NCBI GenBank assembly: GCA_965228915.1
Contig: OZ245847.1
Span: forward strand, 873,173 to 937,172
Direction of reading: 5' to 3'
Source of the DNA: Rhodospirillales bacterium
Lineage (GTDB): Bacteria > Pseudomonadota > Alphaproteobacteria > Rhodospirillales > Casp-alpha2
Length of the DNA: 64,000 nt
In this document: piece after piece, positions 27,879-45,013 of the stretch
Layout: each line of letters begins with the position of its first letter
Position numbering within the stretch: the first letter of the stretch is position 1
The notes under the pieces: model-generated
Seen by the model: the letters and a program-made list of their open reading frames with translations, nothing else
Database searches by the model: none
What the model was told of the DNA's origin: nothing
Translations under genes and position numbers: made by a program

Positions 27879-29212
27879 CCCAGCCGGAACGCCAGCCCCT
27901 TAGCCAGTCCGTGAAGCGGTATCTGCCGCGCTCCCTGCTCGGCCGGTCGCTGCTGATCATCGTCACGCCGCTGGTGCTGCTTCAGGTGGTCTCCGCGATC
28001 ATCTTTTTCGAAAGCCACTGGGACAAGGTGACACTCAGGCTCGCCAAATCCGTCGCCGGCGACACGTCGGTGATCATCTCGCTGATGCGCCGCTATCCCG
28101 GCCCTGAGAACCGTGACTGGATTTTCTATAACGCGGCCCGCTACATGGAGTTCCGGACGTCCTATCACGAAGGCGAAATCCTGCCGAACCGGCCGCCGAA
28201 GCCGGACGGGCTTCTGGAGGAGATGCTGGCCGAGTCGCTGCAGTCGTTCGTCAACAAGCCATTCCTGATCGACACCAAGTCGCTTGAGGACGACGTCATC
28301 ATCAAGGTGCAACTCGCCGAAGGCGTGCTCAGGATCGAGACGACCCGAAAGCGGCTGTTCAGTTCGACGACCTATGTCTTCGTGATCTGGATGGTGGGAA
28401 CGTCGCTGATCCTGTTCGCGGTCGCCATGGTCTTCATGCGCAACCAGGTCAAACCGATCCGCCGGCTGGCGACCGCCGCCGACGACTTCGGCAAGGGGCG
28501 CGCCGTCGAAACCTTCAAGCTCGAAGGCGCGACCGAGGTGCGCCAGGCGGCGAGCGCGTTCCTCGCCATGCGCGACCGTATCCGCCGCCAGATCGCCCAG
28601 CGCACCGATATGCTGTCGGGGGTCTCGCACGATCTCAGAACGCCGCTGACGCGCATGAAACTGCAACTCGAAATGTCGGGCAGCGGCGACGATGCGCAGG
28701 CTTTAAAGGACGACATCGCCGAGATGGAACGGATGCTGGAGGGGTATCTGGCGTTTGCGCGCGGCGAAGGGGGCGAAACACCTGAACCGACGGACCTCTC
28801 CAAACTTCTGCAGGACGTCGCCGAACAGGCGCGGCGGCACGATGCACGGATCGATCTGCACACCGAAGGCCGGATCGACGTCACGATCCGCCCCAACGGC
28901 TTCCGGCGCTGCATCACCAACCTGATCGAAAACGCGATGCGCTACGCCGAGCACATCTCGATCCGCGCCGGCGTGCGCGGCGAAGGGGTCGAGATCGTGA
29001 TCGACGACGACGGTCCCGGCATCCCCGAAGAACAGCGCGCCGAGGTGTTTCGGCCGTTCTACCGGCTCGAACAGTCGCGCAATCCCGGCACCGGCGGCGT
29101 CGGGCTCGGCCTTTCCATCGCGCGCGATGCGATCCAGGGCCACGGCGGCGAGATTCGGCTGGAAGATTCGCCCATGGGCGGGCTCCGCGTCTGGATCAGA
29201 TTGCCGCTATAA
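27875..29212 (+). CDS. EnvZ-like sensor histidine kinase
   Basis: Two TM helices, HAMP, VSHDLRTPLTR H-box, NLIENA, DDDGPGI and GVGLGLSIA. ATGA overlap with the response regulator. Confidence 0.93.
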   Translation: MTQPERQPLSQSVKRYLPRSLLGRSLLIIVTPLVLLQVVSAIIFFESHWDKVTLRLAKSVAGDTSVIISLMRRYPGPENRDWIFYNAARYMEFRTSYHEGEILPNRPPKPDGLLEEMLAESLQSFVNKPFLIDTKSLEDDVIIKVQLAEGVLRIETTRKRLFSSTTYVFVIWMVGTSLILFAVAMVFMRNQVKPIRRLATAADDFGKGRAVETFKLEGATEVRQAASAFLAMRDRIRRQIAQRTDMLSGVSHDLRTPLTRMKLQLEMSGSGDDAQALKDDIAEMERMLEGYLAFARGEGGETPEPTDLSKLLQDVAEQARRHDARIDLHTEGRIDVTIRPNGFRRCITNLIENAMRYAEHISIRAGVRGEGVEIVIDDDGPGIPEEQRAEVFRPFYRLEQSRNPGTGGVGLGLSIARDAIQGHGGEIRLEDSPMGGLRVWIRLPL

Positions 29213-30265
29213 ACGGCCGTTCAGCTTGTCGAACAGATAGCGGCCGACCTTCGTCGCCCCCTGGCCGGTGTTGTGGACCCGGTCATAGAAATCCCCGTCC
29301 TCGAACGGCAGTTCGCGCGCCAGATCGATGCAGATCGCACCGAGGTCGTTGCAAACCCGCATGGTCACGCGGTTATAGGCATCCAGCTGGCGGAAATACC
29401 CTTCCGCGGCAGCGCGCGCTTCACCGTTCGGCAGCCAGATCCAGCCGTCGCGGATCCTGGCGTCGGCGCTTGGCTGTGTCACATAAATGGCGCGCGCACC
29501 GAAATCGCGGATTTTCTCCGTCAATCGCTGCAGGCGCGTCTCGTAGGCAGCAAGCCGTTCCATGTACGCCTCGGGGGGCGCGAACCGCGTGTCCGCGGGC
29601 TGCCACTTCGTCCATTCCAGACCGTCACGCCGAGTATCGCCGTGCACGACGTGCGCGTCATACGCCGCCAACATGCCTTTGGCGATCTTGTAGACGTGAT
29701 AAAGCACACTCTTGTTTTTGATCGCCTCGGCGAACCGTCTCGACGGGTCCGGCGACCGCATGTCGTCGTATTTTTCATGTCCTTCGACCGCGACATCGTT
29801 GATCCCCGCATAAACCAAGACAAAACGCGCCTTCAGGCCCTTGATCAGCGGGAACCAGCGTTCGAAAACGGCGATGTGGCCACGTGTCGACTGGCCGTCG
29901 ACGGCGGCGTTGACGACGCTCGTCTTTTCCCCGGCGGCGGCGAACCGGCGTGCCAATTCGGCTTGCCAGGTCTCGGCGTCGTCGACATATAGCTGGTTGG
30001 TGGTGCTGCCGCCGAGCGTAAGGATATCGATTTCACCGACGCTCTCGTAGTGACCGCGCAGTCCGTGCTCGTCGCGCGTATAGGTGACTTTCCCTCCGCC
30101 GGAATAGAGATTCTCGACATCGAACACGCGGACCGTGTTCCGCGGGATGTTCATTTCGCGGTAGTCGGGACCGAACAGCCAGTTGCCGAAGACCAACTCG
30201 GCGATGACAAGACCGGCCACCAGCACCAGAACGTTGATGCCGATCACCCTGAGCATGTTTTTCAT
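29207..30265 (-). CDS. Membrane-anchored SGNH/GDSL hydrolase
   Basis: N-terminal TM; block I LGGSTT, block II NAAVDG, block III YAGINDV, block V DRVH. Confidence 0.8.
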   Translation of the reverse strand: MKNMLRVIGINVLVLVAGLVIAELVFGNWLFGPDYREMNIPRNTVRVFDVENLYSGGGKVTYTRDEHGLRGHYESVGEIDILTLGGSTTNQLYVDDAETWQAELARRFAAAGEKTSVVNAAVDGQSTRGHIAVFERWFPLIKGLKARFVLVYAGINDVAVEGHEKYDDMRSPDPSRRFAEAIKNKSVLYHVYKIAKGMLAAYDAHVVHGDTRRDGLEWTKWQPADTRFAPPEAYMERLAAYETRLQRLTEKIRDFGARAIYVTQPSADARIRDGWIWLPNGEARAAAEGYFRQLDAYNRVTMRVCNDLGAICIDLARELPFEDGDFYDRVHNTGQGATKVGRYLFDKLNGRL

Positions 30266-30275
30266 ACGTGTGGGT

Positions 30276-31754
30276 TTACCACGGACGCTCGGCGTTCGTC
30301 GCCCACGGATCGTCGTCGATCGGCCAGACGGGCCTGGCGATCTTTTCGTGCGAGACCTTGGTCATATCCCATTCGAGCGTGCCCGGCGCGGCGCAGTAGA
30401 TGATCTTCTTGGCGATCTTCGAGTATTCGGCGTGGAAGTGCTGCATCGATTTGACGACGACGATACGGCGCTTCGTCGGATCGATGCCGAGCGCCTCGAA
30501 GAAATGCGGGTGCGTGTTCTGGGTCCGGGCAGAATGCACGACGAAATCGATACCCTCGGCGTGCAGCCACACCGCATCGCCGACATAGCGCTGCGAGCCG
30601 CCCAGGCTTTTGACATAGGCGTCGCGGATGACGTTTTTGACTTCCACCTTGAGGTCGAGCGGGTCGCCGGAAACCGCACCGGTCTTGCCCCCAAGCCTGA
30701 TCTGGAACTTGGCGCCGACGCCGGCGCCGATGGCGATGCCGGTCGCGACCGGATCCCAGATACCGCCCACGCACGCCATGCCGATGCCGCGCTCCAGCAT
30801 GCGACGAATAATGAATGTGCTGTCGCCGGGCCCGCCGCCGCCCGGATTGTCGGCCATATCGGCGATCACGGCGGGGCCTTCCTTTTCGGCCAGCGCTTCG
30901 GTGATTGCGGTTTCGACATCGACGTAGCGGGGCGTAATCTCGTCCCGGATCTGCCAGAGCTCGCGCCCCAGCTTTTCGGCCAGATCGTCGCCGAACGGTT
31001 TGTTGTCGTCGGTGACGACGATGACGCGCGTGCCTTCCGCCGGCACGTCGCCCCACGGGAAGCCGTGACCGAGCGAAACCGACAACACGCCGTCCTTACC
31101 CTCCAGCGACGTCATTTTATCGACGAAAGACCGCATCGGTTCGCGCGTGGTGTGGAAACAGCCGATCATCCGGCAGTCGAAGCTCGAGATCACCGGCTTG
31201 CACGTGCCGTCGAAGGTCGGCTCCATGATCTTCCAGAGGTCTTCGGCGCGCTCGCGGCTGTCCGTATGCGGGTACTCTTTATATATCACCAACGCGTTCA
31301 CTTCCTCGGTGAAGCGCCGCGTGATGTGGCAGTGCAGGTCGAACTCGACGCCGAGGGGAATATCGGGGCCGACGATCTCGCGGATATGATGCACGAGGTC
31401 GTCCTCGCAGTCGTCATAGCCCTCGGCCACCATCGCGCCGTGCAGGCTGAGCATAACGCCGTCGACCGGCATCGCATTTTTAAGGTCGTTCAGGATTTCG
31501 TCGCGCAGGTCTTCGTAAACCTTCTTGACCGTGATCCCGGACGGGGTTGCGAACGCGGACAGGCTTTCGACCACCTCCCAGCCGCGCTTCTTCGCGTGCT
31601 CGCGCCAGATCACAAGGGGGGCGCCGAACATATGCGGCACGTCGCCGTGATCGCCGCCCCTGACCAGGTGCGAGTTCTCGAACGCCGCCAGATCGGTGGG
31701 TAACGGGGCCGTGGTATGGGTTTCCGTGCCGAGGCACGCGGTGAACAGTTTCAT
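30276..31754 (-). CDS. M81 family (MlrC-like) metallopeptidase, copy 1
   Basis: GTETHT, LHGAMV, DLHCH, YPHTD, ADMADNPGGG and VVKSMQHF motifs. Confidence 0.88.
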   Translation of the reverse strand: MKLFTACLGTETHTTAPLPTDLAAFENSHLVRGGDHGDVPHMFGAPLVIWREHAKKRGWEVVESLSAFATPSGITVKKVYEDLRDEILNDLKNAMPVDGVMLSLHGAMVAEGYDDCEDDLVHHIREIVGPDIPLGVEFDLHCHITRRFTEEVNALVIYKEYPHTDSRERAEDLWKIMEPTFDGTCKPVISSFDCRMIGCFHTTREPMRSFVDKMTSLEGKDGVLSVSLGHGFPWGDVPAEGTRVIVVTDDNKPFGDDLAEKLGRELWQIRDEITPRYVDVETAITEALAEKEGPAVIADMADNPGGGGPGDSTFIIRRMLERGIGMACVGGIWDPVATGIAIGAGVGAKFQIRLGGKTGAVSGDPLDLKVEVKNVIRDAYVKSLGGSQRYVGDAVWLHAEGIDFVVHSARTQNTHPHFFEALGIDPTKRRIVVVKSMQHFHAEYSKIAKKIIYCAAPGTLEWDMTKVSHEKIARPVWPIDDDPWATNAERPW

Positions 31755-31775
31755 CGTTCCCGTTCCTTCGTGGTG

Positions 31776-33209
31776 TTATTTCGAGAGCGCATCCAGATCG
31801 GGGATCGGACGCGCGGTCGCCGGATTGGCGGCCAACTGGCGTTCCAGTGCGGCGGCGATTTCGAGCACTTGGCGGTCGCGGCCCGGCGCGCCCAAAACCT
31901 GAATGCCGAACGGCATGCCGAACTCGTCGATGCCACACGGCAAGACGCAACCGCACGCCATCGCCATGGTCGGCGCGTAGCTGAGCGAGAGCCACCGCAT
32001 ATACGTCGGCATCTTCTCGCCATCGATTTCGGAAACGAACCATTCCGCGTGCGGGAACGGGGTCACGGCGGCCGCCGGGCAGATCACGCAGTCGACCTCG
32101 TCCAGAAGCGAGATCCAGGCGCGCGCGATTTTCGTCTGTGTCAGGTGCGCCTTGGCGACATCTTCCAGATTGTACTGCAAGCCACGGTCGACGTTGTCGA
32201 CGACGTTGGGGCTGATCTTGTCGCGATGGTTCTTGACCCGCTCCCCATGTGCGCCGACGAAAACGACGCCGCGCAACACCTCGAAGCATTCGTGCACGTC
32301 GGTGAAGTCCGGATCGCGATCCTGGGCTTCGGCGAAGACATGACGGAAGGTGTCGGTACGCGACTTGAACAGCGCGCGATTGGCCTTCGAGACCGGCGAG
32401 CAGCCGAGGTCCGGCGAGATCGCCGCGCGCATGGAGCCGAGGTCGGCTTCGCGCATCGGCTCGAACAAGGCCGGGTCGAGATCGCCGGAGAACGGATCGC
32501 GCGCATCGGCGGAAGCCTGCGCCGACAAAAGCATCGCCGCGTCGGCGACGTTTCGCGCCATCGGCCCCAAAACGGAAAACGGCAAAAGCCCGGCCGGCTT
32601 GGCCTCGGCGGGCACCACGCCCGGCGTCGGGCGGAAACCGACGATGCCGCAGAACGCGGCGGGCGTCCTGAGACTCCCCCCGTAATCCGACCCGCTCGCG
32701 ATCGGCACCATGCCCGTCGCCAGGGCGACGGCAGAGCCGCCGGACGAGCCCGCACACGTCTTTTCCGGGTCGAACGGATTGCCGGTCGCGCCGAACAACA
32801 GGTTGCGGGTATTGGCGCCGGCGCCGAATTCGGGCGTATTCGTCTTGCCGACGACAATGGCCCCTTCGTCGCGGACGTTCGAAACCGAGAGCTGATCCAC
32901 TTCGGGGACGTTATCCTCGTAAAGCTTGGAGCCGAACGTGGTCCGGAGGCCTTCGGTCGCTTCCAGATCCTTGATGCCGATGGGCAGACCGTGCAGCACA
33001 CCGAGATAGTCGCCGTCCACGACCGCCTGTTCGGCGGCCTTGGCTTCGTCCATGGCGCGCTCGAAGCACGTCGAGACCATGGTGTTGACGGCCGGATTGA
33101 CCGATTCGATGCGGCGGATGCAGCTTTCCGTCAGTTCCACCGGCGAGATGTCCTTACTGCCGATACGCCGGCGCAACTCGATGGCAGTCAGATCGCAAAG
33201 CTCTGTCAT
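31776..33209 (-). CDS. Amidase signature family hydrolase
   Basis: LPIGIKDL (Lys), GKTNTPEFG, and GSSGGSA...GSDYGGSLRTPA (Ser-cisSer). Confidence 0.9.
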   Translation of the reverse strand: MTELCDLTAIELRRRIGSKDISPVELTESCIRRIESVNPAVNTMVSTCFERAMDEAKAAEQAVVDGDYLGVLHGLPIGIKDLEATEGLRTTFGSKLYEDNVPEVDQLSVSNVRDEGAIVVGKTNTPEFGAGANTRNLLFGATGNPFDPEKTCAGSSGGSAVALATGMVPIASGSDYGGSLRTPAAFCGIVGFRPTPGVVPAEAKPAGLLPFSVLGPMARNVADAAMLLSAQASADARDPFSGDLDPALFEPMREADLGSMRAAISPDLGCSPVSKANRALFKSRTDTFRHVFAEAQDRDPDFTDVHECFEVLRGVVFVGAHGERVKNHRDKISPNVVDNVDRGLQYNLEDVAKAHLTQTKIARAWISLLDEVDCVICPAAAVTPFPHAEWFVSEIDGEKMPTYMRWLSLSYAPTMAMACGCVLPCGIDEFGMPFGIQVLGAPGRDRQVLEIAAALERQLAANPATARPIPDLDALSK

Positions 33210-33220
33210 CTCTTCATCTC

Positions 33221-34621
33221 CTAAGCGGCGCGGCCGGCCGGCGTGTTGCCGTCACCCAGGTCCCACCACAGTCCGGTCATGATGCGGAGCGCGCTGTGAC
33301 AGACCGGCGCCAGAACGTGTTCGTTCGGCGCGTGCTGCGAACATCCGGCGTAGGAATGCGGCACCCAGATCGTCGGCAGGCCCAGCACTTCCGCGAAGCA
33401 GTCATTAGGGAGCGTGCCGCCGAGGTTGGGCAGCACCGCGACCTCCTCGCCCGACGTCTCGCCGATCGACGAGATCGCCCACTGCGCCCACGGATGATCC
33501 GGGTCGAGGCGGGTCGCATACATGTAGTCGCGCTCGGGCTCGAGCTTGATGTCGTTGAAGCCGTGCGCATCGAGATGCTTGCGGAGCGCCGGCAGGAAAT
33601 TGTGCGGGTCGGTGCCGACCACGTAACGAATGTGGCCGTAGGCCACCGCGCGCGGTGGGATCGCATTTACCGGGTTGCGTGGGTTGCCGCACTCGAAGGC
33701 CCTTATTTCGAACGTGTTGGAGCCGAAGACCTTTTCTTCCGGCGTCAGGCCCGGCTCGCCCCAGTCGGGATCGATCTCCGGCGCGTCGTCGCCGCCGCCG
33801 ACCTTCAGTTTCGAGATCGCCTTGCGCACCGAATTCGACATCGGCTCGGGCCGCCATTCTTCGATCAGAATCTTGCCCTTGGCGTCGGTGATCGTCGCAA
33901 GGGCGTGCGCCATGATCACACCCGGGTTCGACAAAAGCCCGCCCCAGTTCCCGGAATGATGCCCGCCGTCGCGGCATTCGAGCGTCATGGTAAAGTTGAA
34001 CACCCCGCGCGACCCCATGAACACGGTCGGCCTGTCGGGCGCCAGACGCGGGCCGTCGGAGGCGATGAACACGTCGACGTCCTTGAACAGATCCTTATAG
34101 ACCTCGCAGAATTTCTTGAGCCCCGGCGAGCCGCTCTCTTCGCCGGTCTCGATCAGCGCGATGGCGTTGAAGCCCAGCTTGCCGCGGGTTTCCAGGACAT
34201 GCTTCATCGCCGCTAGGTTGATGGTGTGCTGCGCCTTGTTGTCGGCGGTGCCACGGCCGTACCAGCGATCGCCCTCGACGACGATCTCCCACGGGTTCAG
34301 GCCTTCGCGCCACTGGTCGTCGTAGCCGCGCACCACGTCGCCGTGGCCGTAGGTCATCACGGTCGGCAGCGCTTCGTCCTCAATGCGCGAGGCGACCAGA
34401 AACGGCATCTTGCCCTCGATGGGATTTTCGTAGATCTCGCAGGTGAAGCCGAAATCTTCGAGGTACGGCGTCATCTCTTCTTCGAGATAGCGGTAAAGCT
34501 CGGGCCGCTTGTCCGGTTCCGGGCTCTCGGTGCGGATCGCCACACGGCGCTTCAGGTCGTCCATGAAGCCGCCGTTGTTGAAATAGTCGTCGATGCTGTT
34601 AAGTGCGTCGTCTTTGCTCAT
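33221..34621 (-). CDS. M20 family metallopeptidase, copy B
   Basis: YGHGD, GRGTADNK, TGEESG, SDG and QHAPNEH metal/catalytic motifs. Start MSKDDAL overlaps the stop of copy A. Confidence 0.9.
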   Translation of the reverse strand: MSKDDALNSIDDYFNNGGFMDDLKRRVAIRTESPEPDKRPELYRYLEEEMTPYLEDFGFTCEIYENPIEGKMPFLVASRIEDEALPTVMTYGHGDVVRGYDDQWREGLNPWEIVVEGDRWYGRGTADNKAQHTINLAAMKHVLETRGKLGFNAIALIETGEESGSPGLKKFCEVYKDLFKDVDVFIASDGPRLAPDRPTVFMGSRGVFNFTMTLECRDGGHHSGNWGGLLSNPGVIMAHALATITDAKGKILIEEWRPEPMSNSVRKAISKLKVGGGDDAPEIDPDWGEPGLTPEEKVFGSNTFEIRAFECGNPRNPVNAIPPRAVAYGHIRYVVGTDPHNFLPALRKHLDAHGFNDIKLEPERDYMYATRLDPDHPWAQWAISSIGETSGEEVAVLPNLGGTLPNDCFAEVLGLPTIWVPHSYAGCSQHAPNEHVLAPVCHSALRIMTGLWWDLGDGNTPAGRAA

Positions 34622-36030
34622 GGTCGGTATGCTGTGCCTTCCTCGCCCATATCCCAGTAAACGCCGGTCACCAGTTCCATTCCTTCGCGGGTCAGTGACC
34701 AAAGTATGTGTTCGTCCGGCGCGTGCTGCGAGCAGCCGGTGTAACTCAGCGGCATCCACACGAACGGAATCTTTAAAACGTCCTGAAACACGTCGTTGCA
34801 GATCGAACCGCCGGAATTCGGCATCACGTCGGGAATCTCGCCGGTGGTGCGCTTGACCGCGCCCTTGACCCATTCCGCCCACGGATGATCGGGCGGCGTC
34901 CGCGCCGCCAGAAAGATCGCGTCGTTGCCGGGCGGCGGGTCGGCGATCTCGACCATCTCGAAGCCGTTGGCGTCCAGGTGCTTGCGTAAATTACTGCGCA
35001 GGTTCTGATAGTCGGTGCCGACCACGAAACGAAGCTGGCAGTTGGCGCGCGCACGCGGCGGGATCGCGTTGACTGGATTGTTCGGATTGCCGGTCGTGAA
35101 CGCCAGGATCTCGAAACTGTTCCAGGCGTAGACTTTCTCCGCCGACGTCAATCCCGGCTCGCCCCAGGTCTCGTCGATCTCGGGCGCGTCCTTGCCGCCG
35201 TCCCGCGAAATCCCCTTCAGCGCATCGCGCACCGAATTCGAAATCGGCGGCGGCTTCAGGGCATCGACGAGGATGCGGCCCTTCTGATCGACGATGGTCG
35301 CGAGCGCGTGGCTGAGGATCACGCCGGGGTTGGACAGCAAGCCGCCCCAGTTCCCGGAATGATGTCCGCCGTCGCGGCAGTTCACGACCAGATCAAAGTT
35401 GACGCAGCCCCGATTACCGAGCGTCAGGTTCGGACGCGACACGCTGACGCGCGGCCCGTCGGAGGCGAAGTACGCATCCGCCATGAAGTCGTCTTTGTGC
35501 TGCGCGACGAGATCCTTCAGCCCCTTGGAGCCGTTCTCTTCCCCCGTCTCGACCATAAACTTGGAATTGAAGCCGAGCTTGCCGCGCGTCTCCAGCACCG
35601 CCTTGATGGCCCCCATATGCGTGGTGTGCTGCGCCTTGTTGTCGGCGGTGCCGCGCCCGTAGACCCGGTCGCCGTCGCGCGACAACTTCCACGGCCCCTC
35701 GCCCTTGGTCCAACGCTCCGCCTGGCCGCGCACGGTGTCGCCGTGGCCGTACCCGAGGATCGTCGGCAGGCTCTCGTCCTCGATCCGGCTCGCCAGCAGC
35801 ACCGGGCCGCCGCCCTCGTACGGGTTGTCGTAGATCCGGGTTTCGTAGCCCATGGCTTCGAAATCGGGACGGATGAAGTCGGTGAGATATCGATAGAGTT
35901 CCGGAAGCTGGGACGGTTCCTGGCTTTCCGTGGGTACCGCGACGCGGTCGGATAGGGTCTTGAAGTAGCCGGCGTCTTCGTCGTCGAACCACGCCAGCGC
36001 GGAAGCGATGGCGTCGGCGCGGGTTGTCAT
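34618..36030 (-). CDS. M20 family metallopeptidase, copy A
   Basis: YGHGD, GRGTADNK, TGEENG, SDG and QHAPDEH motifs; collinear paralog of copy B. Confidence 0.9.
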   Translation of the reverse strand: MTTRADAIASALAWFDDEDAGYFKTLSDRVAVPTESQEPSQLPELYRYLTDFIRPDFEAMGYETRIYDNPYEGGGPVLLASRIEDESLPTILGYGHGDTVRGQAERWTKGEGPWKLSRDGDRVYGRGTADNKAQHTTHMGAIKAVLETRGKLGFNSKFMVETGEENGSKGLKDLVAQHKDDFMADAYFASDGPRVSVSRPNLTLGNRGCVNFDLVVNCRDGGHHSGNWGGLLSNPGVILSHALATIVDQKGRILVDALKPPPISNSVRDALKGISRDGGKDAPEIDETWGEPGLTSAEKVYAWNSFEILAFTTGNPNNPVNAIPPRARANCQLRFVVGTDYQNLRSNLRKHLDANGFEMVEIADPPPGNDAIFLAARTPPDHPWAEWVKGAVKRTTGEIPDVMPNSGGSICNDVFQDVLKIPFVWMPLSYTGCSQHAPDEHILWSLTREGMELVTGVYWDMGEEGTAYRP

Positions 36031-37010: not shown

Positions 37011-38020
37011 GCGACCCCCCGTTTCTGAGCATTGGCGCGGCAGGTCTCCGGATCGAGCAGGCAACGATACTCGTGCCCGTCCTCGACCGCCGGACGCATG
37101 TCGATGTCGCCCTTTACGCACTCTGCGAACGCGTACTGACAGCGTTCCGCGAAGTGGCAGGCGTTGAATGGGCCGACCAGCGACGGCACGATCCCCGGGA
37201 TCGAGCCCAAGGGCTTGTTGCGCTCGGTCTTGCCCGGGATCGGGATGCAATCCAGCAGGCCCTGCGTGTATGGATGGGTCGGCCGGTTGAAGACCTGATC
37301 GGCGGTGCCTTGTTCGACGACCTGACCGGCGTACATGACCGCGACCCGGTCGGCGATGCGCGCGACGACTCCCAGGTCGTGGGTGATCAGGATCAACCCC
37401 ATTTCGAACTCGCGCTGCAGTTCGGCCAATAGCAACAGGATCTGCGCCTGGATCGTCACGTCGAGCGCGGTTGTCGGCTCGTCGGCGATGATCAGGTTGG
37501 GCCCGCACATCAGCGTCATGGCGATCATGACCCGCTGACGCAGCCCGCCCGACAACTGATGCGGATACTGGCTGAGGCGCGATTCCGCCGCCGTGATCCC
37601 GACTTTCTCAAGCAGATAGATCGCCCGGTCCCGCGCCTCGCGGGTCGACACGTTTCTGTGGCGACTCAGCGCCTCCTCCATCTGGTTGCCGATGGTGTAG
37701 GCCGGATTGAGGCTGGTCATCGGCTCCTGGAAGATCATTCCCATGGTGTTGCCGCGGATATCCGACATGCGGCGCTCACCGGCATTGAGGATGTCCTCGC
37801 CGCCCAGTTCGAGCTTGTTGGCGCCGCGGATCGCCTTTTTCGGCAAAAGGTCCATGACGGCGAGAGACGTCAGCGATTTCCCGCATCCGGATTCGCCGAC
37901 GATGCACAGCGTCTCGCCCTTGTCGACATGGAACGAAATCCCCTGCACCGCGTGCAGCATGCCGCCGCCGACCGGAATATCGACGGTGAGGTTTTCGACT
38001 TCGAGAATACGTTCGCTCAT
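37007..38020 (-). CDS. Dpp/Opp ABC ATP-binding protein (D-type)
   Basis: GESGCGKS, LSGGLRQR, ADEPTTALD and HPYTQGLL motifs. Confidence 0.92.
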   Translation of the reverse strand: MSERILEVENLTVDIPVGGGMLHAVQGISFHVDKGETLCIVGESGCGKSLTSLAVMDLLPKKAIRGANKLELGGEDILNAGERRMSDIRGNTMGMIFQEPMTSLNPAYTIGNQMEEALSRHRNVSTREARDRAIYLLEKVGITAAESRLSQYPHQLSGGLRQRVMIAMTLMCGPNLIIADEPTTALDVTIQAQILLLLAELQREFEMGLILITHDLGVVARIADRVAVMYAGQVVEQGTADQVFNRPTHPYTQGLLDCIPIPGKTERNKPLGSIPGIVPSLVGPFNACHFAERCQYAFAECVKGDIDMRPAVEDGHEYRCLLDPETCRANAQKRGVA

Positions 38021-38029
38021 AGCCCTCTC

Positions 38030-38959
38030 CTAGTTCCGGTTTTCGGGCGCGGTGATGTCCCGCATGCCGTCGCCCAAAAGGTTGATGGAAAGGATCAGGA
38101 TGAACAGCGCCGTCCCCGGAATGCCGACCAGCCACGGGTCGAACAGCATGTGGTTCTTGCCCTCGGCGATCATCAGGCCCCAACTTGGCGCCGGCGGCTG
38201 AACGCCGAGCCCCAGGAACGACAGCGCCGCTTCGAGGATGATGGCGTGCGCCATCTCGACCGTGGCGACGACGATCAGGTTGTTGACGATGTTCGGCATG
38301 ATCTCGGTGAAGATGATGCGCGGCGTCGAGCAGCCGATGGCCTGCGCCGCGGCGACGTAATCGAGGTTCCGGACCTGTTGGGTGGTACTTCGCATGACGA
38401 CCGCGAAGCGGTCCCAGATCAAAAGCCCGAGCACGCAGATCACGATCCAGAGCGAGTTGCCGACCAGCGACACGACCGCCAGCGCGACAAGCACGACGGG
38501 TAACGACAGCCGCGTCGTGATGACGAAGTTGACGACCATGTCGACCCTGCCGCCGAAGTAGCCGGCGGCGACGCCGATGGCGGTGCCGATGACGCCCGAA
38601 ATCAACATCGCCGCGAAACCGATCAGCAGCGAAATCTGCGAGCCGTGGATCAGGCGCGAGAGGTAGTCGCGGCCGAACTGGTCGGTGCCCAGCGGATGTA
38701 CCCACGTCGCTTTCGGGCTGTCGTGCCAGATCGGCGGGATCAGCTTGCGCGCGAGTTGTTGGTCGAGCGGATCGTGCGGCGAAATCAGCGGTGCCAGAAA
38801 CGCGATGGCGAGAATGGCCAGAAGCACGATGGCCCCGAACATGAAGCCGACGTGGCTGAACATGCGCTTGCGCGCGCGTTCCGCCGGCGACGGCTCTTCG
38901 ATGGTGCGGTCCGCGATGACGGGCTTCTGGACGTTGGTATCCTGAACGGCTTCGGACAT
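38030..38959 (-). CDS. Dpp/Opp ABC permease (C-type)
   Basis: HPLGTDQFGRD, EAA-like YVAAAQAIG and LSFLGLGVQPP motifs. Confidence 0.92.
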   Translation of the reverse strand: MSEAVQDTNVQKPVIADRTIEEPSPAERARKRMFSHVGFMFGAIVLLAILAIAFLAPLISPHDPLDQQLARKLIPPIWHDSPKATWVHPLGTDQFGRDYLSRLIHGSQISLLIGFAAMLISGVIGTAIGVAAGYFGGRVDMVVNFVITTRLSLPVVLVALAVVSLVGNSLWIVICVLGLLIWDRFAVVMRSTTQQVRNLDYVAAAQAIGCSTPRIIFTEIMPNIVNNLIVVATVEMAHAIILEAALSFLGLGVQPPAPSWGLMIAEGKNHMLFDPWLVGIPGTALFILILSINLLGDGMRDITAPENRN

Positions 38960-38960
38960 A

Positions 38961-39887
38961 TCAGCTCACCCTGATCCGGGGGTCGAGGAACGCGTTGAGT
39001 AAGTCGGCCAGGAACGTCAGCACGATATAGAAGCACGACAACACCAGCACGATGGCCTGCATCATCGGCAGGTCCGCGCGCAGGATCGATTCCCACGCCA
39101 GCTGACCCAGGCCGTTGATGGCGAAGATCGTCTCAATGACGATCGAGCCGCCGAGCATGAAGCCGAACTGCACGGCCGCCAGCGACACCACAGGGATGAT
39201 TGCGTTCCTGAGCGCGTGTTTGAACAGAACGACGCCGGGACGCAGCCCCTTGGCGCGCGCGGTCCGGATATAATCGCTCGACAGCACTTCGATCATTCCG
39301 GCGCGGGTCAGGCGCATCACCGCGGGCGTCACGTAATAACCAAGCGCGATCGACGGCATGATGAAATTCATCCACGACGCCGAGCCTGTGATGGGCAGCC
39401 ACCTGAGGCTGACGCCGAACAGGAAGATCATGATCAGCGCGAACCAGAAACTCGGCAGCGCCTGACCGATGACCGCAAGCGTCAGCGCAAACCGGTCGAT
39501 GAGCGTATTGGGCCGCATCGCCGCCAAGACGCCGAGCGGTATCGAAAGACATAGCGCGAAGCCGAGCGCGCACGCACCCAATGTCATGGTCACCGGCAGG
39601 CGGTCGAAGATGACGTTGGACACTTCGGTCTTCAGATAATGAGAATGACCGAGGTTGCCCTGCAGCGCGTTGCCGAGCCAGTTGAAATATTGAACGATGA
39701 TCGGTTGGTCGTAGCCGTAAACCCGGCGGATATTCTCGATATCCTGCTGCGTCGCGCTTTCGCCCGCGAGCGCCATCGCCGGGTCGCCCGACAGATAGAT
39801 CATTGAAAATGTTAAAAGTGAAACGGTTACAGCCACCAGCAACGCGATGCTGAGCCGTTTCAGGGCATAAATAAGCATGCCTGGCAA
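38961..39887 (-). CDS. Dpp/Opp ABC permease (B-type)
   Basis: GDPAMALAG, YFNWL, DYIRTARAKG, KHALRNA and IETIFAINGLG motifs. Confidence 0.92.
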   Translation of the reverse strand: MPGMLIYALKRLSIALLVAVTVSLLTFSMIYLSGDPAMALAGESATQQDIENIRRVYGYDQPIIVQYFNWLGNALQGNLGHSHYLKTEVSNVIFDRLPVTMTLGACALGFALCLSIPLGVLAAMRPNTLIDRFALTLAVIGQALPSFWFALIMIFLFGVSLRWLPITGSASWMNFIMPSIALGYYVTPAVMRLTRAGMIEVLSSDYIRTARAKGLRPGVVLFKHALRNAIIPVVSLAAVQFGFMLGGSIVIETIFAINGLGQLAWESILRADLPMMQAIVLVLSCFYIVLTFLADLLNAFLDPRIRVS

Positions 39888-39905
39888 TCCCGATTACGGA
39901 TGGCA

Positions 39906-39938
39906 CGGCCGGTGCGGGGTCATGCCCGGCACCGGCCG
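39906..39938. other. Intercistronic stem-loop between the binding-protein and permease genes
   Basis: CGGCCGGTGC...GCACCGGCCG 10-bp arms; this position is typical of hairpins that stabilise SBP mRNA. Confidence 0.55.
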
Positions 39939-39953
39939 CGTTACATCAGTGTT

Positions 39954-41492
39954 TTACTTCCACTTCGCCGTATAGAACCGCGGGATCTCATCCGAGGTCG
40001 GCGTGAAGTCGAGGTCTTCGGTGTACGCGTAGTACTTTGCGTACGTGAACATCGGCAGCCAGTAGAGCTCGCTCGAAATCTTCGAGAGAGCTTTCTTGTA
40101 GGCTTCCTTGCGGACCGTCGGATCGGTGGAGGTGTCGCCCTTGTGGAGCGCTTCGACCACTTCCGGATCCTTCGCCGGGTCGTCCTTGCCGCCCGAGAAG
40201 AAGTGACCGGTCGATGCCGACACGTCCGGAACCGAGTTCGAACCCCAGGTCATGTGGTGCAGTGGCGTCGTGCCTTTCCACACCAGATCGCGCAGCGCGC
40301 GATACTGCATGAACTTGAGGTTGGCCTTGATGCCGACGTTCGCCAGGTCGCCGATGACGGCTTCCGTGAACTCACGCTGACGATAGGCGTAGATGTCGGT
40401 TTCGAACCCGTCGCCATAGCCGGCTTCCTTCAGAAGCGCTTTGGCTTTCGCGGGGTCGTAGTCCCACTTCTTGACATCCTGCGTGCAACCGAACTGATCC
40501 GGGTGACACGCGGAATCGATCACCACGGAGGCCGGACCGACGAGGTTTTCGACGATCGACTTCCGGTTGATCGCATGCGCGACGGCTTCGCGGACCTTCT
40601 TGTCCATGAAGTGCTTGTCGCCGCTGTCGCCGTCGACGTCGAAGGCGATGTAGCTGATGCGCATGGTCTTGGCGTTGGTCACCGTGGTGCCGCCGCGCTC
40701 ACCCAGCTTTTCGGCCTGATCCTTCGGCACGTCCCAGATCCAGTCCACGCCGCCGGTCAGAAGCTCGGCGATCTGCGTGTTCATTTCCTTGATGGTGCGG
40801 AACGTCAGTTTGCCGATGGCCGGCTGGCCCTTCGGACCGTTCTTGAAGTAGTTCTCGTTGCGGACCATTTCGATGCGGTCACCCGCGACGACGTTGACCA
40901 TCTTGTACGGGCCGGTGCCGTTGGCCGGAACCGTACCGTAATCCTTCTTGCCGTCGGCGCCGTCCTTGGCGCTGTCATAGTGGCCTTCGGGCATCATGAA
41001 GACAGTCTGCGCGAAGTAGGCCAGTGCCGCCGGGAACGGTTCCTTGAGATAGATCCGGACGCTGTTCGGACCGGTCTTCTCGGCCGACTTCAGGAACTTC
41101 ACGTTGGCCTGGGTCAGCACGCCGTTGTCGGCGTTGGAAACGAAGTTGACGGTGTAGACCACGTCTTCCGGACCGAACTTGGAGCCGTCATGGAAGACGA
41201 CGTCGTCGCGCAGTTCGAAATCGATGGTGGTGGCGTCGACCCATTTGTACGAGGTCGCCAGCAGCGGCTCGTATTCACCGGTCTTGAGATTGCGGAACAG
41301 CAGACCGTCCCACACGGTGTTCCCCATGATGACGAGTTCACGGGTGTTGTTGAAGTAAGGATCGGCGACCGCCACTTCACGGGTCGTCGACCAGACCAAC
41401 TCGTCGTTGGCCTTGCCTGCGTGGGCCGCAGGTGCGACAGCCAGCGTTGCCGCTGCTGCCAGAGCTGAGCTCAATAGTACTTTGCGAAACAT
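39954..41492 (-). CDS. ABC substrate-binding protein, family 5 (peptide/opine/nickel)
   Basis: Sec signal, LRDDVVFHDG, TGPYK, VREAVAHAINR and YDPAKAKALLKEAG motifs. Confidence 0.92.
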   Translation of the reverse strand: MFRKVLLSSALAAAATLAVAPAAHAGKANDELVWSTTREVAVADPYFNNTRELVIMGNTVWDGLLFRNLKTGEYEPLLATSYKWVDATTIDFELRDDVVFHDGSKFGPEDVVYTVNFVSNADNGVLTQANVKFLKSAEKTGPNSVRIYLKEPFPAALAYFAQTVFMMPEGHYDSAKDGADGKKDYGTVPANGTGPYKMVNVVAGDRIEMVRNENYFKNGPKGQPAIGKLTFRTIKEMNTQIAELLTGGVDWIWDVPKDQAEKLGERGGTTVTNAKTMRISYIAFDVDGDSGDKHFMDKKVREAVAHAINRKSIVENLVGPASVVIDSACHPDQFGCTQDVKKWDYDPAKAKALLKEAGYGDGFETDIYAYRQREFTEAVIGDLANVGIKANLKFMQYRALRDLVWKGTTPLHHMTWGSNSVPDVSASTGHFFSGGKDDPAKDPEVVEALHKGDTSTDPTVRKEAYKKALSKISSELYWLPMFTYAKYYAYTEDLDFTPTSDEIPRFYTAKWK

Positions 41493-41672
41493 TATGCTCG
41501 CGCCTCCCTGACTAAACTGGCATTGCGCATGCCATCAGCGGGGGCGCTCTCGACGCGCCCCGATTGATTCAATTGTTCGATGAATCGGCCGCCGAGTCCA
41601 TGGCGAACCTCGATCCATCGCGGAATTTTTTAGAAACCCCCTTCCCGTCGGGTTCTTCAACCTCTTCCGGGT

Positions 41673-41704
41673 TGTATTACTATTTAATACACCGTAGTAT
41701 ATAC
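41673..41704. promoter_or_regulatory. AT-rich palindromes, candidate IclR operator in the divergent SBP/iclR region
   Basis: TGTATTA-CTATT-TAATACA (41673-41691) and GTATATAC (41697-41704), 35-65 bp upstream of iclR. Confidence 0.45.
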
Positions 41705-41739
41705 CGATATGCTATGAATAACACTGCAAGGCGTCAAGC

Positions 41740-42567
41740 ATGACGATTGAAAAAGCCAAACAGGTTCAAGCCCCCCCGGACGCCCCCCCCGCCGGCGCGT
41801 TATACGTGGGCTCGCTGGAAAAGGGCTTCCGCGTGCTCGCCGCGTTCACCGAAGACTTCCCCGCACTCGGCGTGACCGAGATCGCGCTCCGCACCGGATT
41901 GGACAAGAGCGCGGCGCAACGATTCTCCAACACGCTTCACCAGCTCGGTTTCCTTGAGAAGGATACGGCGACCCGGCGTTACCGGCCGGCCCGCAAGTTG
42001 ATGGAAATGGCGTACACATACCTGCGCCACAGCGCACTGGGCGCCGCTGCCATGCCGCGGCTCATCGAGGCGGGCGCGGTCTACAAGACCACCGTCAACC
42101 TGGCCGAACGCGACGACACCGACATGATCTACACCATCCGCATTCCGCACGTGAAGGCGGCCTACGCGGCAACGGTGGTGGGCCGTCGCATTCCGGTGTT
42201 CTGTTCGGCGGCGGGGATCGCGGTGCTGTCCAGGATGAGCGACGACGAAGCCCTGGAGATCATCGAAAGGTCGGAACTGACGAAGCGTATTCCGTCCACG
42301 ATCGTCGATCCCGACCGTATCATGAAAATGGTGCAGCAGGCGCGCCGCCGCGGTTTTGCCGCGACCTATGCGCAGCAGTTGCCGCGCGAAATCTCGATCG
42401 CGGCACCTATCACGGGATTTCGCGGCCGACCCGTCGGCGCGGTGCAGATCCCGGTCTACTACCCGACGTGGAAGCAGTCCGAAGCTGCCGCCAAGCTGGG
42501 CCCCCTCGCCGTCGAGACCGCTGATGCGATCTCGGGTGCACTCATCGCTTCCGAACAGGATTACTGA
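41740..42567 (+). CDS. IclR family transcriptional regulator
   Basis: SLEKGFRVL, HTH LGVTEIALRTGLDKSAAQR and C-terminal effector domain (SAAGIAVL, SIAAPI). Confidence 0.92.
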   Translation: MTIEKAKQVQAPPDAPPAGALYVGSLEKGFRVLAAFTEDFPALGVTEIALRTGLDKSAAQRFSNTLHQLGFLEKDTATRRYRPARKLMEMAYTYLRHSALGAAAMPRLIEAGAVYKTTVNLAERDDTDMIYTIRIPHVKAAYAATVVGRRIPVFCSAAGIAVLSRMSDDEALEIIERSELTKRIPSTIVDPDRIMKMVQQARRRGFAATYAQQLPREISIAAPITGFRGRPVGAVQIPVYYPTWKQSEAAAKLGPLAVETADAISGALIASEQDY

Positions 42568-42568
42568 C

Positions 42569-44062
42569 ATGACGTTTCGCGTACTCACCGGATTATTCGG
42601 CCACGAAAGCAATGCGTTCTCGAAGCTGCCGACGGCGCTCGTCAATTTCGAGAATTATCTGCTGGCTTACGGCGACGACGTGCCCGCCAAGATCGCCGGC
42701 GCCAAGATCGAACCCACGGGCGTCGAAGAAGCCGCCGCCGAATACGGCTGGGACCTTGTCCGCACCGTCGTCGCCTGGGCAACGCCGTCGGGCCCGGTCG
42801 CGCGCGATGCATGGGACGCGTGCGTCGGTGCGATCCTCGACGCCGCGAAATCGAAAGGGCCGTTCGACGGCGTGCTGCTCAACATGCACGGCGCCATGGC
42901 GACGGTCGACTACGACGACGCCGAGGGCCAGTTGTTGAAGGAACTGCGCGCCATTATCGGCCCCGACGTACCGGTCGCCATCACGCTCGACCTGCACGCC
43001 AACGTCACCGATCTGATGACCGAGCATGCCGACATCATCTGCGCGTATCGGACCTATCCGCACATCGATCAGATCGAAACCTCGAAACGCGCTGCGGCGG
43101 TGCTCGAACGCACGATGAAGGGCGAGGTCAAACCGGTGGCGGTCACGGTGCGACGCGACACCATCGAGGGACTGGACGACGGCCGCACCACCACCGACAA
43201 CCCGATGACGACGCTGCTGGCGCGCGCCGCCGATCTGGAACTTGCGGATCCGGGCGTGCTGCTGGTGTCGATACAGGCCGGCTTCACGCCTGCCAACCTC
43301 TACGAAGCCGGGCCGACGGTCTCCGTCACCGGCGACGGCGACGACGCGCGGTTCAGGGCCATCGCCGACGAGTACATGGATTACGCCTGGGAAACGCGGC
43401 ACTTCGATTCCAACACTTATCTTTCCGTCGACGAAACCGTCGATGAAATCGCCCGCCTGCTCGACGGAGGCGCCGGCAAGGGGCCGATCGTCGTCGCCGA
43501 TTTTTCCGACAATCCCGGATCCGGCGCTTACGGCGATTCGACGCTGATGCTGGCGGGCCTGCTCAAGGCCGATCTGCAGAACGCGTGCTTCGGCACCATC
43601 TGCGACGCTGAGTCAGCGGCCAAGCTGGTGTCGGCGGGCGAAGGCGCGACGGTCACCGTCAATCTGGGCGGCAAGACCGACCCCGCGTTCGGCGCGCCCC
43701 TCGAGCTCACCGGCACGGTCACGAAAGTCACCGACGGCACCTACGTCGCGCAGGGCCCCCGCTGGAAAGGCGTCACCCATCACCTGGGTCCGACCGCGGT
43801 GTTCAAGGTCGGGGGGATGGAAATCGTGGTCGCTTCGAACCGTCTGCAGCTGACCGAGGTCGAAGCCTTCACCCACGCCGGCATCGACCCCCGCGAACGC
43901 GACGTCGTCGCCGTCAAGTCGATGCAGCACTTCCGCGCCGCCTTCGCGCCGCTCGCGCGCGAGATTCTGATCTGCGACGCCGGTGCGCTCTCCACCAAGG
44001 ACATCTCGAAATTGCCGTTCACCCGGCTGCGCCGGCCGATCTTTCCGCTGGACCTCGATTAA
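42569..44062 (+). CDS. M81 family (MlrC-like) metallopeptidase, copy 2
   Basis: GHESNAF, MHGAM, DLHAN, YPHID, ADFSDNPGSG and AVKSMQHF motifs; starts 1 bp after the iclR stop. Confidence 0.88.
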   Translation: MTFRVLTGLFGHESNAFSKLPTALVNFENYLLAYGDDVPAKIAGAKIEPTGVEEAAAEYGWDLVRTVVAWATPSGPVARDAWDACVGAILDAAKSKGPFDGVLLNMHGAMATVDYDDAEGQLLKELRAIIGPDVPVAITLDLHANVTDLMTEHADIICAYRTYPHIDQIETSKRAAAVLERTMKGEVKPVAVTVRRDTIEGLDDGRTTTDNPMTTLLARAADLELADPGVLLVSIQAGFTPANLYEAGPTVSVTGDGDDARFRAIADEYMDYAWETRHFDSNTYLSVDETVDEIARLLDGGAGKGPIVVADFSDNPGSGAYGDSTLMLAGLLKADLQNACFGTICDAESAAKLVSAGEGATVTVNLGGKTDPAFGAPLELTGTVTKVTDGTYVAQGPRWKGVTHHLGPTAVFKVGGMEIVVASNRLQLTEVEAFTHAGIDPRERDVVAVKSMQHFRAAFAPLAREILICDAGALSTKDISKLPFTRLRRPIFPLDLD

Positions 44063-44064
44063 AC

Positions 44065-45003
44065 GTGGCCGAAACGCTGCCCGAAGCGAAGGCGGCCCGA
44101 ACCCGGCCCGAAGCCGTCAACCGGCCGCTCGAAGGCGCGCTCTGGATGATCGCGTCCTGCGCGTTCCTGGCCGGGCTTTCGGCGCTCGGACGGCATCTCT
44201 CGCAACTCGGCGTCGATCCGCTGCAGATCGTTTTCTGCCGGCTCGTGTTCGCATGGATGTGCATGCTGCCGTGGCTGCTGCACCGGGGCGTCGGCTCGCT
44301 CGGCACGTCGCAGTTCAAGCTCTATCTGGTGCGCGCGTGCTGCTCGATGTGCGCCATGTCGACATGGTTCTACGCGCTGGCGCTGATCCCCATCGGCGAG
44401 GTGACCGCCTTGAGCTTCGCGGCGCCGCTGTTCACCACCATCGGCGCGGCGCTGGTGCTGGGCGAGGTCGTCAGGCTCAGGCGCTGGACGGCGACCCTGA
44501 TCGGTTTCGCCGGCGCGCTGATCATCATCCGGCCGGGCTTCGTCGAGATGAGCGCCGGAAGCTGGTTCGCCGTCGCTTCCGCCGTCTTCATGGGCACGTC
44601 GGCCTTGATCGTCAAAACCCTCACCCGCGGCGACGACCCGTGGACGGTCGTCTTTTTTTCCCACCTGATCATGATTCCCATCGCCCTGGTGCCTGCGATT
44701 TACGTCTGGTCCTGGCCGACCCAGGAAGCATGGATGTACCTGTTCGCCACCGGGCCGATCGCCGTGCTCGGCCATCTGTTCCTGACCAAGGCGTTTTCGG
44801 TGACCGACGTTTCCATCGTCGCCGCTGTGGATTTCTCGCGCCTGCCGTTCGCCGTGCTGATCGGCTGGCTGGCGTTCGGCGAGCTGACCGATCTGTGGAC
44901 GTGGGTTGGCGCGCTGGTGATCTTCGCGTCGTCGCTTTACATCGTGCGCCGCGAACAGGCCGTCCACGCCAAACCAAGCGTGCAGGACAAGACCGCGCCC
45001 TGA
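44065..45003 (+). CDS. DMT/EamA family transporter
   Basis: About 10 TM; FAAPLFTT and GEVVRLRRW..IIRPG motifs; GTG start 2 bp after M81 copy 2. Confidence 0.88.
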   Translation: MAETLPEAKAARTRPEAVNRPLEGALWMIASCAFLAGLSALGRHLSQLGVDPLQIVFCRLVFAWMCMLPWLLHRGVGSLGTSQFKLYLVRACCSMCAMSTWFYALALIPIGEVTALSFAAPLFTTIGAALVLGEVVRLRRWTATLIGFAGALIIIRPGFVEMSAGSWFAVASAVFMGTSALIVKTLTRGDDPWTVVFFSHLIMIPIALVPAIYVWSWPTQEAWMYLFATGPIAVLGHLFLTKAFSVTDVSIVAAVDFSRLPFAVLIGWLAFGELTDLWTWVGALVIFASSLYIVRREQAVHAKPSVQDKTAP

Positions 45004-45013
45004 ATGTTGTGCG

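Follow-up and report, generated by a model that had tools for sequence, protein, structure and literature searches.

ATP-binding cassette (ABC) importers of family 5 with attached hydrolases are very common, and few of them have a known substrate. Three described systems lie closest to the locus reported here. In the microcystin pathway mlrABCD, the peptidase MlrC binds zinc through E39, D167, H169 and H191 (PMC9982164). The literature searched on M81, MlrC and DUF1485 contained nothing beyond microcystin work, and MlrC was the sole characterised M81 enzyme found in it. The glutathione importer GsiABCD of E. coli, whose genes adjoin iaaA, and the DUG pathway of yeast with the dipeptidase Dug1 together offer the pairing of an importer served by a family-5 substrate-binding protein (SBP) with cytoplasmic hydrolases. 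MeAmi-type importers, which combine an SBP_bac_5 protein with an associated amidase, take up L-amino acid amides, and such SBPs can bind non-peptide amides; in DppA, GbpA and MeAmi_SBP, an aspartate at the third position after a conserved tryptophan (W+3) anchors the amino group of the ligand (bioRxiv 10.1101/2024.02.22.581678).

The locus described here is a gene island of a Rhodospirillales bacterium. It lies in a window of 64,000 nucleotides (contig OZ245847.1, positions 873,173–937,172), and its coordinates are given within this window. The host genome is a single 4.24-Mb contig and belongs to an uncultured genus. The island encodes a Dpp/Opp-type importer, several amide hydrolases, an IclR-family regulator and an EamA transporter. 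The most plausible explanation, proposed with moderate confidence, is a regulon under local control that imports and hydrolyses small peptides or amides of a non-standard kind. No characterised pathway with this composition was found in the literature searched, which included combinations of M20, amidase, γ-glutamyltransferase (GGT) and IclR, in line with the original prediction made from the DNA alone.

Organization and conservation of the cassette

Genes were called from open reading frame (ORF) listings with their translations, and families were assigned with Pfam and NCBIfam profiles. The minus strand carries ten genes, in transcription order SBP-dppBCDF-M20a-M20b-amidase-M81a-SGNH, and the divergent plus strand carries three, iclR-M81b-EamA. 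From the SBP gene onward, the minus-strand gaps measure 75, 1, 9, −4, −4, −4, 11, 21 and 10 bp. The three −4 bp overlaps, at dppD/dppF, dppF/M20a and M20a/M20b, are all of the ATGA type. On the plus strand, iclR and M81b are separated by 1 bp, and M81b and EamA by 2 bp. Ten minus-strand genes with ATGA overlaps and gaps of ≤21 bp among the genes behind SBP, divergent from iclR-M81-EamA, is the order, orientation and spacing that had been described from the DNA. Base composition shows no break across the island. Only the SBP possesses a signal peptide and the conserved hydrolases are leaderless, which agrees with the earlier proposal of an import-then-degrade unit.

The cassette is chromosomal and genus-wide. 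Orthologs of M81a, 72–97% identical, are present in 23 of 23 genus genomes. Most of these genomes also contain an M81b-type match (33–37% identical to M81a) on the opposite strand, 10–14 kb from M81a. Synteny within the genus was judged on nine loci besides the window, with 10-kb flanks. Genes in the loci of relatives were called with a caller based on GC content at third codon positions, which reproduced the island genes to within a few start codons and is unsuited to low-GC loci. The nine loci share the order EamA2 | EamA1-M81b-IclR <> SBP-BCDF-M20a-M20b-amidase-M81a | histidine kinase. The layout is more than chance, since the cassette is kept in all 23 genomes. Co-occurrence, on which the original prediction had been made to depend, thus holds throughout the genus (23/23), and the cassette is also recognisable in other orders.

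The SGNH gene departs from this pattern. It encodes an SGNH/GDSL hydrolase (29207–30265, minus strand; PF13472) that is anchored in the membrane by an N-terminal helix, contains the blocks GGS, G, GIND and DRVH, and has no relative in the PDB. The gene is present in the window and in loci L017, L018 and L043, and is absent from L019–L024, which are six of the nine genus loci outside the window. In the loci without SGNH, the stop of the kinase gene abuts that of M81a. Where present, SGNH is 74–80% identical, versus 90–96% for its neighbours, and it is absent from all cassettes outside the genus. SGNH is ruled out as a pathway member: its gene, placed at the 3′ end of the operon, is an accessory insertion/deletion and diverges faster. 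The conserved operon therefore consists of nine genes. A two-component system (27177–29212) converges on the SGNH gene, and the stop region of SGNH and the convergent histidine kinase gene overlap by 6 bp.

Hydrolases of the cassette

M20a (34618–36030, minus strand) and M20b (33221–34621, minus strand) are M20A metallopeptidases of the PRK07079 type, a group for which no characterised member was found in the literature searched. They score 653 and 722 bits, respectively, on NF005478 (cutoff 330). Both carry the motifs GHGD, GRGTADNK, ETGEE, ASDG and HAP(D/N)EH, with H-D-E-D-H metal ligands. Among PDB entries, the CNDP/Dug1-like M20a comes closest to carnosinase (3dlj), CNDP2 and Dug1, a Cys-Gly dipeptidase (E 1e-20 to 1e-27). 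A dipeptidase-type role is likely for these enzymes.

The two M20 proteins are 54% identical. In a maximum-likelihood tree of 57 M20 sequences, M20a (clade A) and M20b fall into separate, well-supported old clades that each contain copies from other orders. The clade of M20b is shared with homologs from Ralstonia and Rhizobium. One metagenome-assembled genome (MAG) holds members of three M20 clades side by side. A recent tandem duplication is ruled out, as the copies belong to different old clades. M20a and M20b diverged long ago and probably differ in specificity.

The amidase-signature enzyme (31776–33209, minus strand) matches PF01425 over the full model with an E value of 4.8e-87. Its motifs GIKD, GSSGGS and GSDYGGSLR constitute a Ser-cisSer-Lys triad. 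No functional NCBIfam model reaches its cutoff for this protein, and the nearest PDB structures are GatA, urethanases, an aryl acylamidase and a peptide amidase.

M81a (30276–31754, minus strand), the last conserved gene of the operon, and M81b (42569–44062, plus strand) encode MlrC-like zinc peptidases composed of PF07364 and PF07171 domains. They are 34% identical to each other, and M81a is 38% identical to MlrC (7YLQ). The zinc ligands E39, D167, H169 and H191 of MlrC align to E11, D139, H141 and H163 of M81a, and the same four residues are kept in M81b when it is aligned to M81a. E70 of MlrC, a substrate-binding and catalytic residue, aligns to Met42 in M81a. On the MlrC model NF041767, which has a cutoff of 999 bits, M81a scores 372.4 and M81b 218.6. 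With the M81 zinc ligands kept and the catalytic motifs readable in the translation of every hydrolase, the original description of these motifs as intact is borne out.

The host genome contains six M81 genes in total. Two of the other paralogs lie inside further Dpp-type ABC operons (C1:4132325-4135477 and C1:3069364-3070884), so that the host uses the pairing of M81 and a peptide-type importer more than once.

Importer and binding protein

One operon encodes an SBP_bac_5 protein together with a pair of BPD_transp_1 permeases and a pair of ATPases, which places the system among Dpp/Opp-type importers, the peptide/nickel/opine class. The periplasmic SBP is encoded by the first gene of the operon (39954–41492, minus strand; PF00496, E 9e-72) and carries a Sec signal peptide. 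The following genes, all on the minus strand, are the permease genes dppB (38961–39878) and dppC (38030–38959) and the ATPase genes dppD (37007–38020) and dppF (36027–37010). Their best NCBIfam matches are Opp2B/GsiC, Opp4C/Opp2C, DppD/OppD and DppF, respectively, each under the equivalog cutoff. Scores on DppB-, DppC-, DppD- and DppF-type models range from 240 to 350 bits.

The named NCBIfam models nearest to the SBP are GsiB, the best, and NikA, both far under cutoff. The CntA model is matched as well, and the OppA model gives 42 bits. The nearest SBP structures are 5u4o and GsiB 1uqw. All Gsi equivalog cutoffs are missed, with 147 versus 594 bits for GsiB, 256 versus 463 for GsiC, 199 versus 484 for GsiD, and 251–304 versus 1077 for GsiA. 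The SBP lacks the DppA-type aspartate at W+3 and reads WGSN at this site, where GsiB reads WSAS. The missing aspartate speaks against ordinary dipeptide binding. On these sequence features, the SBP appears more GsiB-like than DppA-like.

Regulation and transcription

The iclR gene (41740–42567, plus strand; PF09339 and PF01614) is the first of the divergent operon and is separated from the SBP gene by 247 bp. Its product shows the features of the IclR-repressor class, namely HTH_IclR and IclR_C domains and a palindrome in the divergent promoter region. The nearest subfamily in NCBIfam is PcaR/PcaU/PobR, under cutoff. The palindrome, TGTATTAAATAGTAATACA (TGTATTA-N5-TAATACA; 41673–41691), is perfect, is conserved in position among relatives, and is a putative IclR operator. 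In the form RTRTYA-N5-TRATACA, it occurs in the IclR–cassette intergenic region of all IclR-bearing loci (L026, L027, L030, L031, L032, L066, L068 and the genus) and nowhere else among the 95 loci compared. Shuffled versions of the window give a chance expectation of 0, and the host genome contains no second copy, which rules out a wider IclR regulon. In L066, the palindrome lies between IclR and M20 in a cassette devoid of an importer, and the palindrome thus tracks the hydrolases. Its tie to the IclR–cassette intergenic region across orders points to IclR as the local regulator. IclR probably controls the cassette through this predicted operator.

A sigma-70-like promoter of the SBP operon was located by a consensus scan at 41709–41737 on the minus strand. 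It consists of TTGACG, a 17-bp spacer and TAGCAT. Across 17 genus sequences TTGAC does not vary, and most of them retain TAGCAT. The palindrome sits just downstream of this promoter. It is followed by a structured 5′ leader of 124 nt ahead of the SBP start codon (41490–41613, minus strand), which is near-invariant in 16 genus genomes. Two stems of the leader maintain pairing through compensatory changes, and the ribosome-binding region is partly paired. No Rfam family matches the leader at E values up to 10. With a covariance model, a single copy per genome is detected, confined to this genus and to this locus, which argues against a known riboswitch or a widespread RNA class. An upstream ORF is ruled out by a stop at codon 4 in one genome.

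A GC-rich hairpin is predicted between the SBP stop and the dppB start (39900–39945, minus strand; −39.8 kcal/mol for the fold of 39870–39960). It accounts for the 75-bp gap after SBP, the only large one in the operon. Transcription was assessed from RNA contigs of three runs from a relative 86–94% identical to the window. By contig depth, a poor measure of expression, the SBP is highest, followed by dppBCDF and then by M20a, amidase and M81a, with a several-fold drop past the hairpin. The ends of the SBP contig lie inside the leader (41541–41554) and near the hairpin (39889–39944). This pattern suggests that the SBP transcript is separately stabilised. Separate contigs span three junctions, dppF/dppD, dppD/dppC and amidase/M81a. 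The minus-strand operon is thus expressed and at least partly co-transcribed in the relative, as the original prediction required. No RNA contigs from the three runs were placed on iclR-M81b-EamA.

Recurrence and modularity outside the genus

Loci outside the genus were sampled around M81a homologs (60–68% identical; 7 loci) and around M20a homologs (21 loci, full flanks). Among the seven M81a-homolog loci from other lineages, four have M20, amidase and a pair of M81 genes directly after one another. The same importer accompanies the set in three of these four, and a divergent IclR in two of them. Marine MAGs display the layouts SBP-BCDF-M20-Amid-Amid-M81-M81, M20x3-Amid-Amid-M81-M81, and IclR and M81 divergent from SBP-BCDF-M20-Amid-M81-M81. 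In MAGs of Hyphomicrobiales and Rhodobacterales, EamA-IclR is divergent from SBP-BCDF-M20(-M20)-Amid-GGT(-M81). Orthologs of iclR are thus also found divergent from the cassette in other orders.

In the 21 M20 loci, the neighbours are an ABC importer (10–11 loci), an adjacent amidase (10), a gene of about 536 codons directly after the amidase (8), EamA (6; EamA1 orthologs, 43–57% identical), a second M20 (4), IclR (3) and M81 (2). The ~536-residue protein is a leaderless GGT. Four copies were checked, and all belong to PF01019 (E about 1e-114 to 1e-123). The single copy scored on TIGR00066 gives 377 bits, above the cutoff of 357.85. E. coli GGT is the nearest structure. The slot between the amidase and an M81b-type gene is occupied by an M81a-type gene in L015, L065 and L068, and by GGT in L027 and L032. 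M81b-type genes (40–44% identical) end the hydrolase operon in L015, L027 and L032. A second M81 gene is also found at the operon end in L065 and L068, and L068 has another beside iclR.

The hydrolase set therefore varies among relatives, with one to three M20, one or two amidases, and GGT and/or zero to three M81 genes. In several MAGs and on the Ralstonia solanacearum megaplasmid (SBP 47%, M20 55% identical), the importer and M20 occur by themselves. On a Terrarubrum plasmid, an amidase gene is divergent from importer-creatininase-RraA-GGT. Cultured, non-pathogenic carriers include Fulvimarina endophytica (L047), with IclR, importer and M20, and Terrarubrum flagellatum (L095), with amidase, importer and GGT. 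From these arrangements, the cassette is modular, with a core of importer and M20, the amidase as usual partner, and GGT, an M81a-type enzyme or both as third hydrolase. The M81b-type gene has two positions, one closing the hydrolase operon and the other next to iclR. Relatives of the cassette are common in marine and soil bacteria.

The window genome has its own GGT ortholog (63% identical), located 77 kb upstream of the island. It belongs to a block (C1:820215-826217) that encodes an AlkB-like oxygenase, a trypsin/PDZ protease, a 613-residue unannotated ORF, a class II aldolase and the leaderless GGT. In the marine MAG loci L015, L066 and L068, the oxygenase, protease and GGT genes adjoin the cassette, as does the aldolase gene in two of the three. 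The link between this block and the cassette could be functional or could reflect inherited synteny.

Other neighbourhoods of the M20 family differ. On a plasmid of Rhizobium sp. BT04 (L064, 9998–11404), a PRK07079-type M20 gene (51% identity to M20a) is flanked by fhuB and the gene for a TonB-dependent siderophore receptor. It also adjoins nonribosomal peptide synthetase and MbtH genes of a siderophore cluster. This context hints that some PRK07079-type M20 members process siderophores. The marine cassette of L066 has no adjacent ABC importer and has a BCCT transporter gene nearby. It also contains a gene of the 4-oxalocrotonate tautomerase family (8338–8532; 64 residues) between M20 and the amidase.

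The plus-strand operon of the island ends with the gene for an EamA/DMT-family membrane transporter (44065–45003, plus strand; PF00892), which shows no specific match to the cysteine exporter. Beyond it are a second, convergent EamA gene, a Gfo/Idh/MocA oxidoreductase gene and queuosine genes. The two EamA genes stand tail to tail at 44065–45961, 10 bp apart. Genus members keep both of them, but in other orders orthologs adjoin the cassette only for the first gene.

Proposed function and alternative explanations

In the proposed regulon, the family-5 periplasmic SBP would capture the substrate and DppBCDF would import it, to be cleaved by the leaderless cytoplasmic enzymes. The amidase-signature enzyme would take off an amide or acyl group. 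A bond resistant to ordinary peptidases would be cut by the M81 zinc peptidases, in the fashion of MlrC, and the two anciently diverged CNDP/Dug1-like M20 dipeptidases would finish dipeptide-sized products. The IclR repressor would bind TGTATTA-N5-TAATACA between the divergent operons and would presumably be released by the substrate or a product. EamA may export a product, a role assigned by conjecture. This scheme builds on the observed gene content, conservation, operator sequence and transcription; the order of steps, the nature of the bonds and of the effector, and the direction in which EamA transports belong to the proposal.

The exchange of GGT and M81a in the same slot and the repeated association of amidase with GGT suggest that the substrate class carries a γ-glutamyl or other iso-peptide bond. 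This suggestion, drawn from gene position in relatives, is tentative and represents a serious minority possibility. Among possible substrates, thiol peptides of the glutathione type and stem peptides of the cell wall are the most concrete candidates. A more specific and rather doubtful idea is that M81a-type peptidases are metal-dependent stand-ins for GGT, cutting the γ-glutamyl or iso-peptide bond of an imported small peptide that the amidase and M20 enzymes then finish. If true, this would represent a widespread undescribed route by which marine and soil Alphaproteobacteria use thiol or cell-wall-derived peptides. For the M81 family, it would be the first physiological role beyond the degradation of microcystin.

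Several points weigh against the regulon as proposed. The window cassette has no GGT, with the ortholog 77 kb off, and the γ-glutamyl argument thus derives from the gene positions of relatives. The same M20 family also occurs as solitary genes and once in a siderophore cluster, and its chemistry is not fixed by context. Some loci may share neighbours through descent rather than function. In addition, the expression data are contig depths, and they come from a relative of the window strain.

The original prediction had gone further, with six hydrolases dismantling a single complex multi-amide substrate stepwise, be it a cyclic or modified peptide, a siderophore, or an opine or N-acyl conjugate. 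As weighed here, this view has a natural product (for example, a cyanopeptide) as the substrate and calls for each hydrolase in turn. Five conserved hydrolases of three folds in one regulon, the 38% identity of M81a to microcystinase C, the old M20 paralogs of probably differing specificity, and an M20 homolog within a Rhizobium siderophore cluster are all consistent with this view. However, SGNH is an insertion/deletion accessory, and the hydrolase set varies widely among otherwise orthologous cassettes, down to the importer and M20 alone in Ralstonia and MAGs. M81 genes also occur in two other Dpp-type operons of the host. M81a reaches 372 of 999 bits on the MlrC model and lacks E70, no mlrA-, mlrB- or mlrD-like gene is found among the annotated genes of 17.5–54 kb of the window, and a Dpp-type importer fits small ligands. 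Given this modularity, a single large natural product that needs six hydrolases is less likely, and stepwise dismantling of this kind is considered unlikely. Another alternative is salvage of glutathione or related thiol peptides (γ-Glu-Cys, Cys-Gly or phytochelatin-like). In this case, a Gsi-like system would import the peptide, GGT or here M81 would cut the γ-glutamyl bond, a Dug1-like M20 would cut Cys-Gly, and EamA would export surplus cysteine. Among named models, GsiB fits the SBP best, and the W+3 position of the SBP is GsiB-like and not DppA-like. Two of the structures nearest to M20, Dug1 and CNDP2, are Cys-Gly dipeptidases, and sister cassettes encode a leaderless GGT above the TIGR00066 cutoff. 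The Gsi models nevertheless score far under cutoff (GsiB 147 versus 594), and the amidase, two M81 and two M20 paralogs would be superfluous for glutathione breakdown. The absence of GGT from the window cassette and of a specific cysteine-exporter match for EamA further render such salvage improbable.

Scavenging of murein stem peptides, or of peptides with D- or iso-amino acids, would assign removal of iso-glutamine or a terminal amide to the amidase, cleavage of the γ-D-Glu bond to M81 or GGT, and cleavage of dipeptides to M20. The peptide substrate of MlrC contains a γ-linked D-Glu (PMC9982164), peptide amidase belongs to the amidase-signature enzymes, and the GGT relative CapD acts on γ-D-Glu polymers. 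This case is built on analogy only, however. The island has no MpaA, LdcA, AmpD or epimerase homolog, and the SBP, with 42 bits on the OppA model, is not close to MppA/OppA. Murein scavenging is accordingly judged quite improbable. Alternatively, there may be no single pathway, and a nickel/metallophore or general peptide importer may lie by chance beside unrelated housekeeping hydrolases. Opp2B and Opp2C, models of the nickel type, do give the permeases their highest scores (300 and 244 bits), and the SBP also matches the NikA and CntA models. Chance association is contradicted by the ATGA start/stop overlaps at dppF/M20a and M20a/M20b and by the same importer followed by the same M20 from Rhodospirillales to Ralstonia. 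It is further contradicted by the common operator, which tracks the hydrolases even without the importer (L066), and by the RNA contigs across gene junctions. This explanation is very hard to sustain. The locally regulated import-and-hydrolyse regulon for small peptides or amides remains the favoured reading.

Comparison with known systems

M81a and M81b share with mlrABCD the two-domain fold of MlrC (PF07364 and PF07171) and its four zinc ligands. However, M81a is only 38% identical to MlrC, has methionine in place of E70, and scores under the MlrC cutoff. The island imports by an ABC system, whereas mlr relies on a POT-type transporter, and the host genome has six M81 paralogs. No CPBP-protease, S12 or POT domain, corresponding to mlrA, mlrB and mlrD, is found among the neighbouring genes. 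The microcystin pathway is ruled out by the model score, the missing E70 and the missing mlrA, mlrB and mlrD.

The likeness to GsiABCD and the DUG pathway is seen in GsiB as the best named model of the SBP, in the CNDP/Dug1-like M20 enzymes, and in the GGT of sister cassettes. In contrast to Gsi proteins, the importer of the island misses all Gsi equivalog cutoffs widely. Glutathione breakdown involves nothing equivalent to the amidase-signature and M81 enzymes, and the window locus contains no GGT or Ntn hydrolase.

Like the MeAmi system, the island encodes a family-5 SBP ABC importer in one operon with an amide hydrolase. The MeAmi amidase is of the FmdA_AmdA type and its regulators are ANTAR and AmiC-like proteins, whereas the island has an amidase-signature enzyme and IclR. 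None of the MeAmi hallmarks, FmdA_AmdA, ANTAR and AmiC-like, is present among the domains of the island. MeAmi_SBP keeps the aspartate at W+3, whereas the SBP of the island reads WGSN.

The design of a family-5 importer, cytoplasmic amide hydrolases and a local repressor is well known, and both the parts and the logic are familiar. This conserved combination, its predicted operator and its distribution are undescribed. A conserved, transcribed and widespread cassette with a defined operator offers a tractable entry to the substrates of family-5 importers, M81 peptidases and PRK07079-type M20 enzymes. In addition, it may show which unusual peptides or amides are harvested by marine and soil Alphaproteobacteria.

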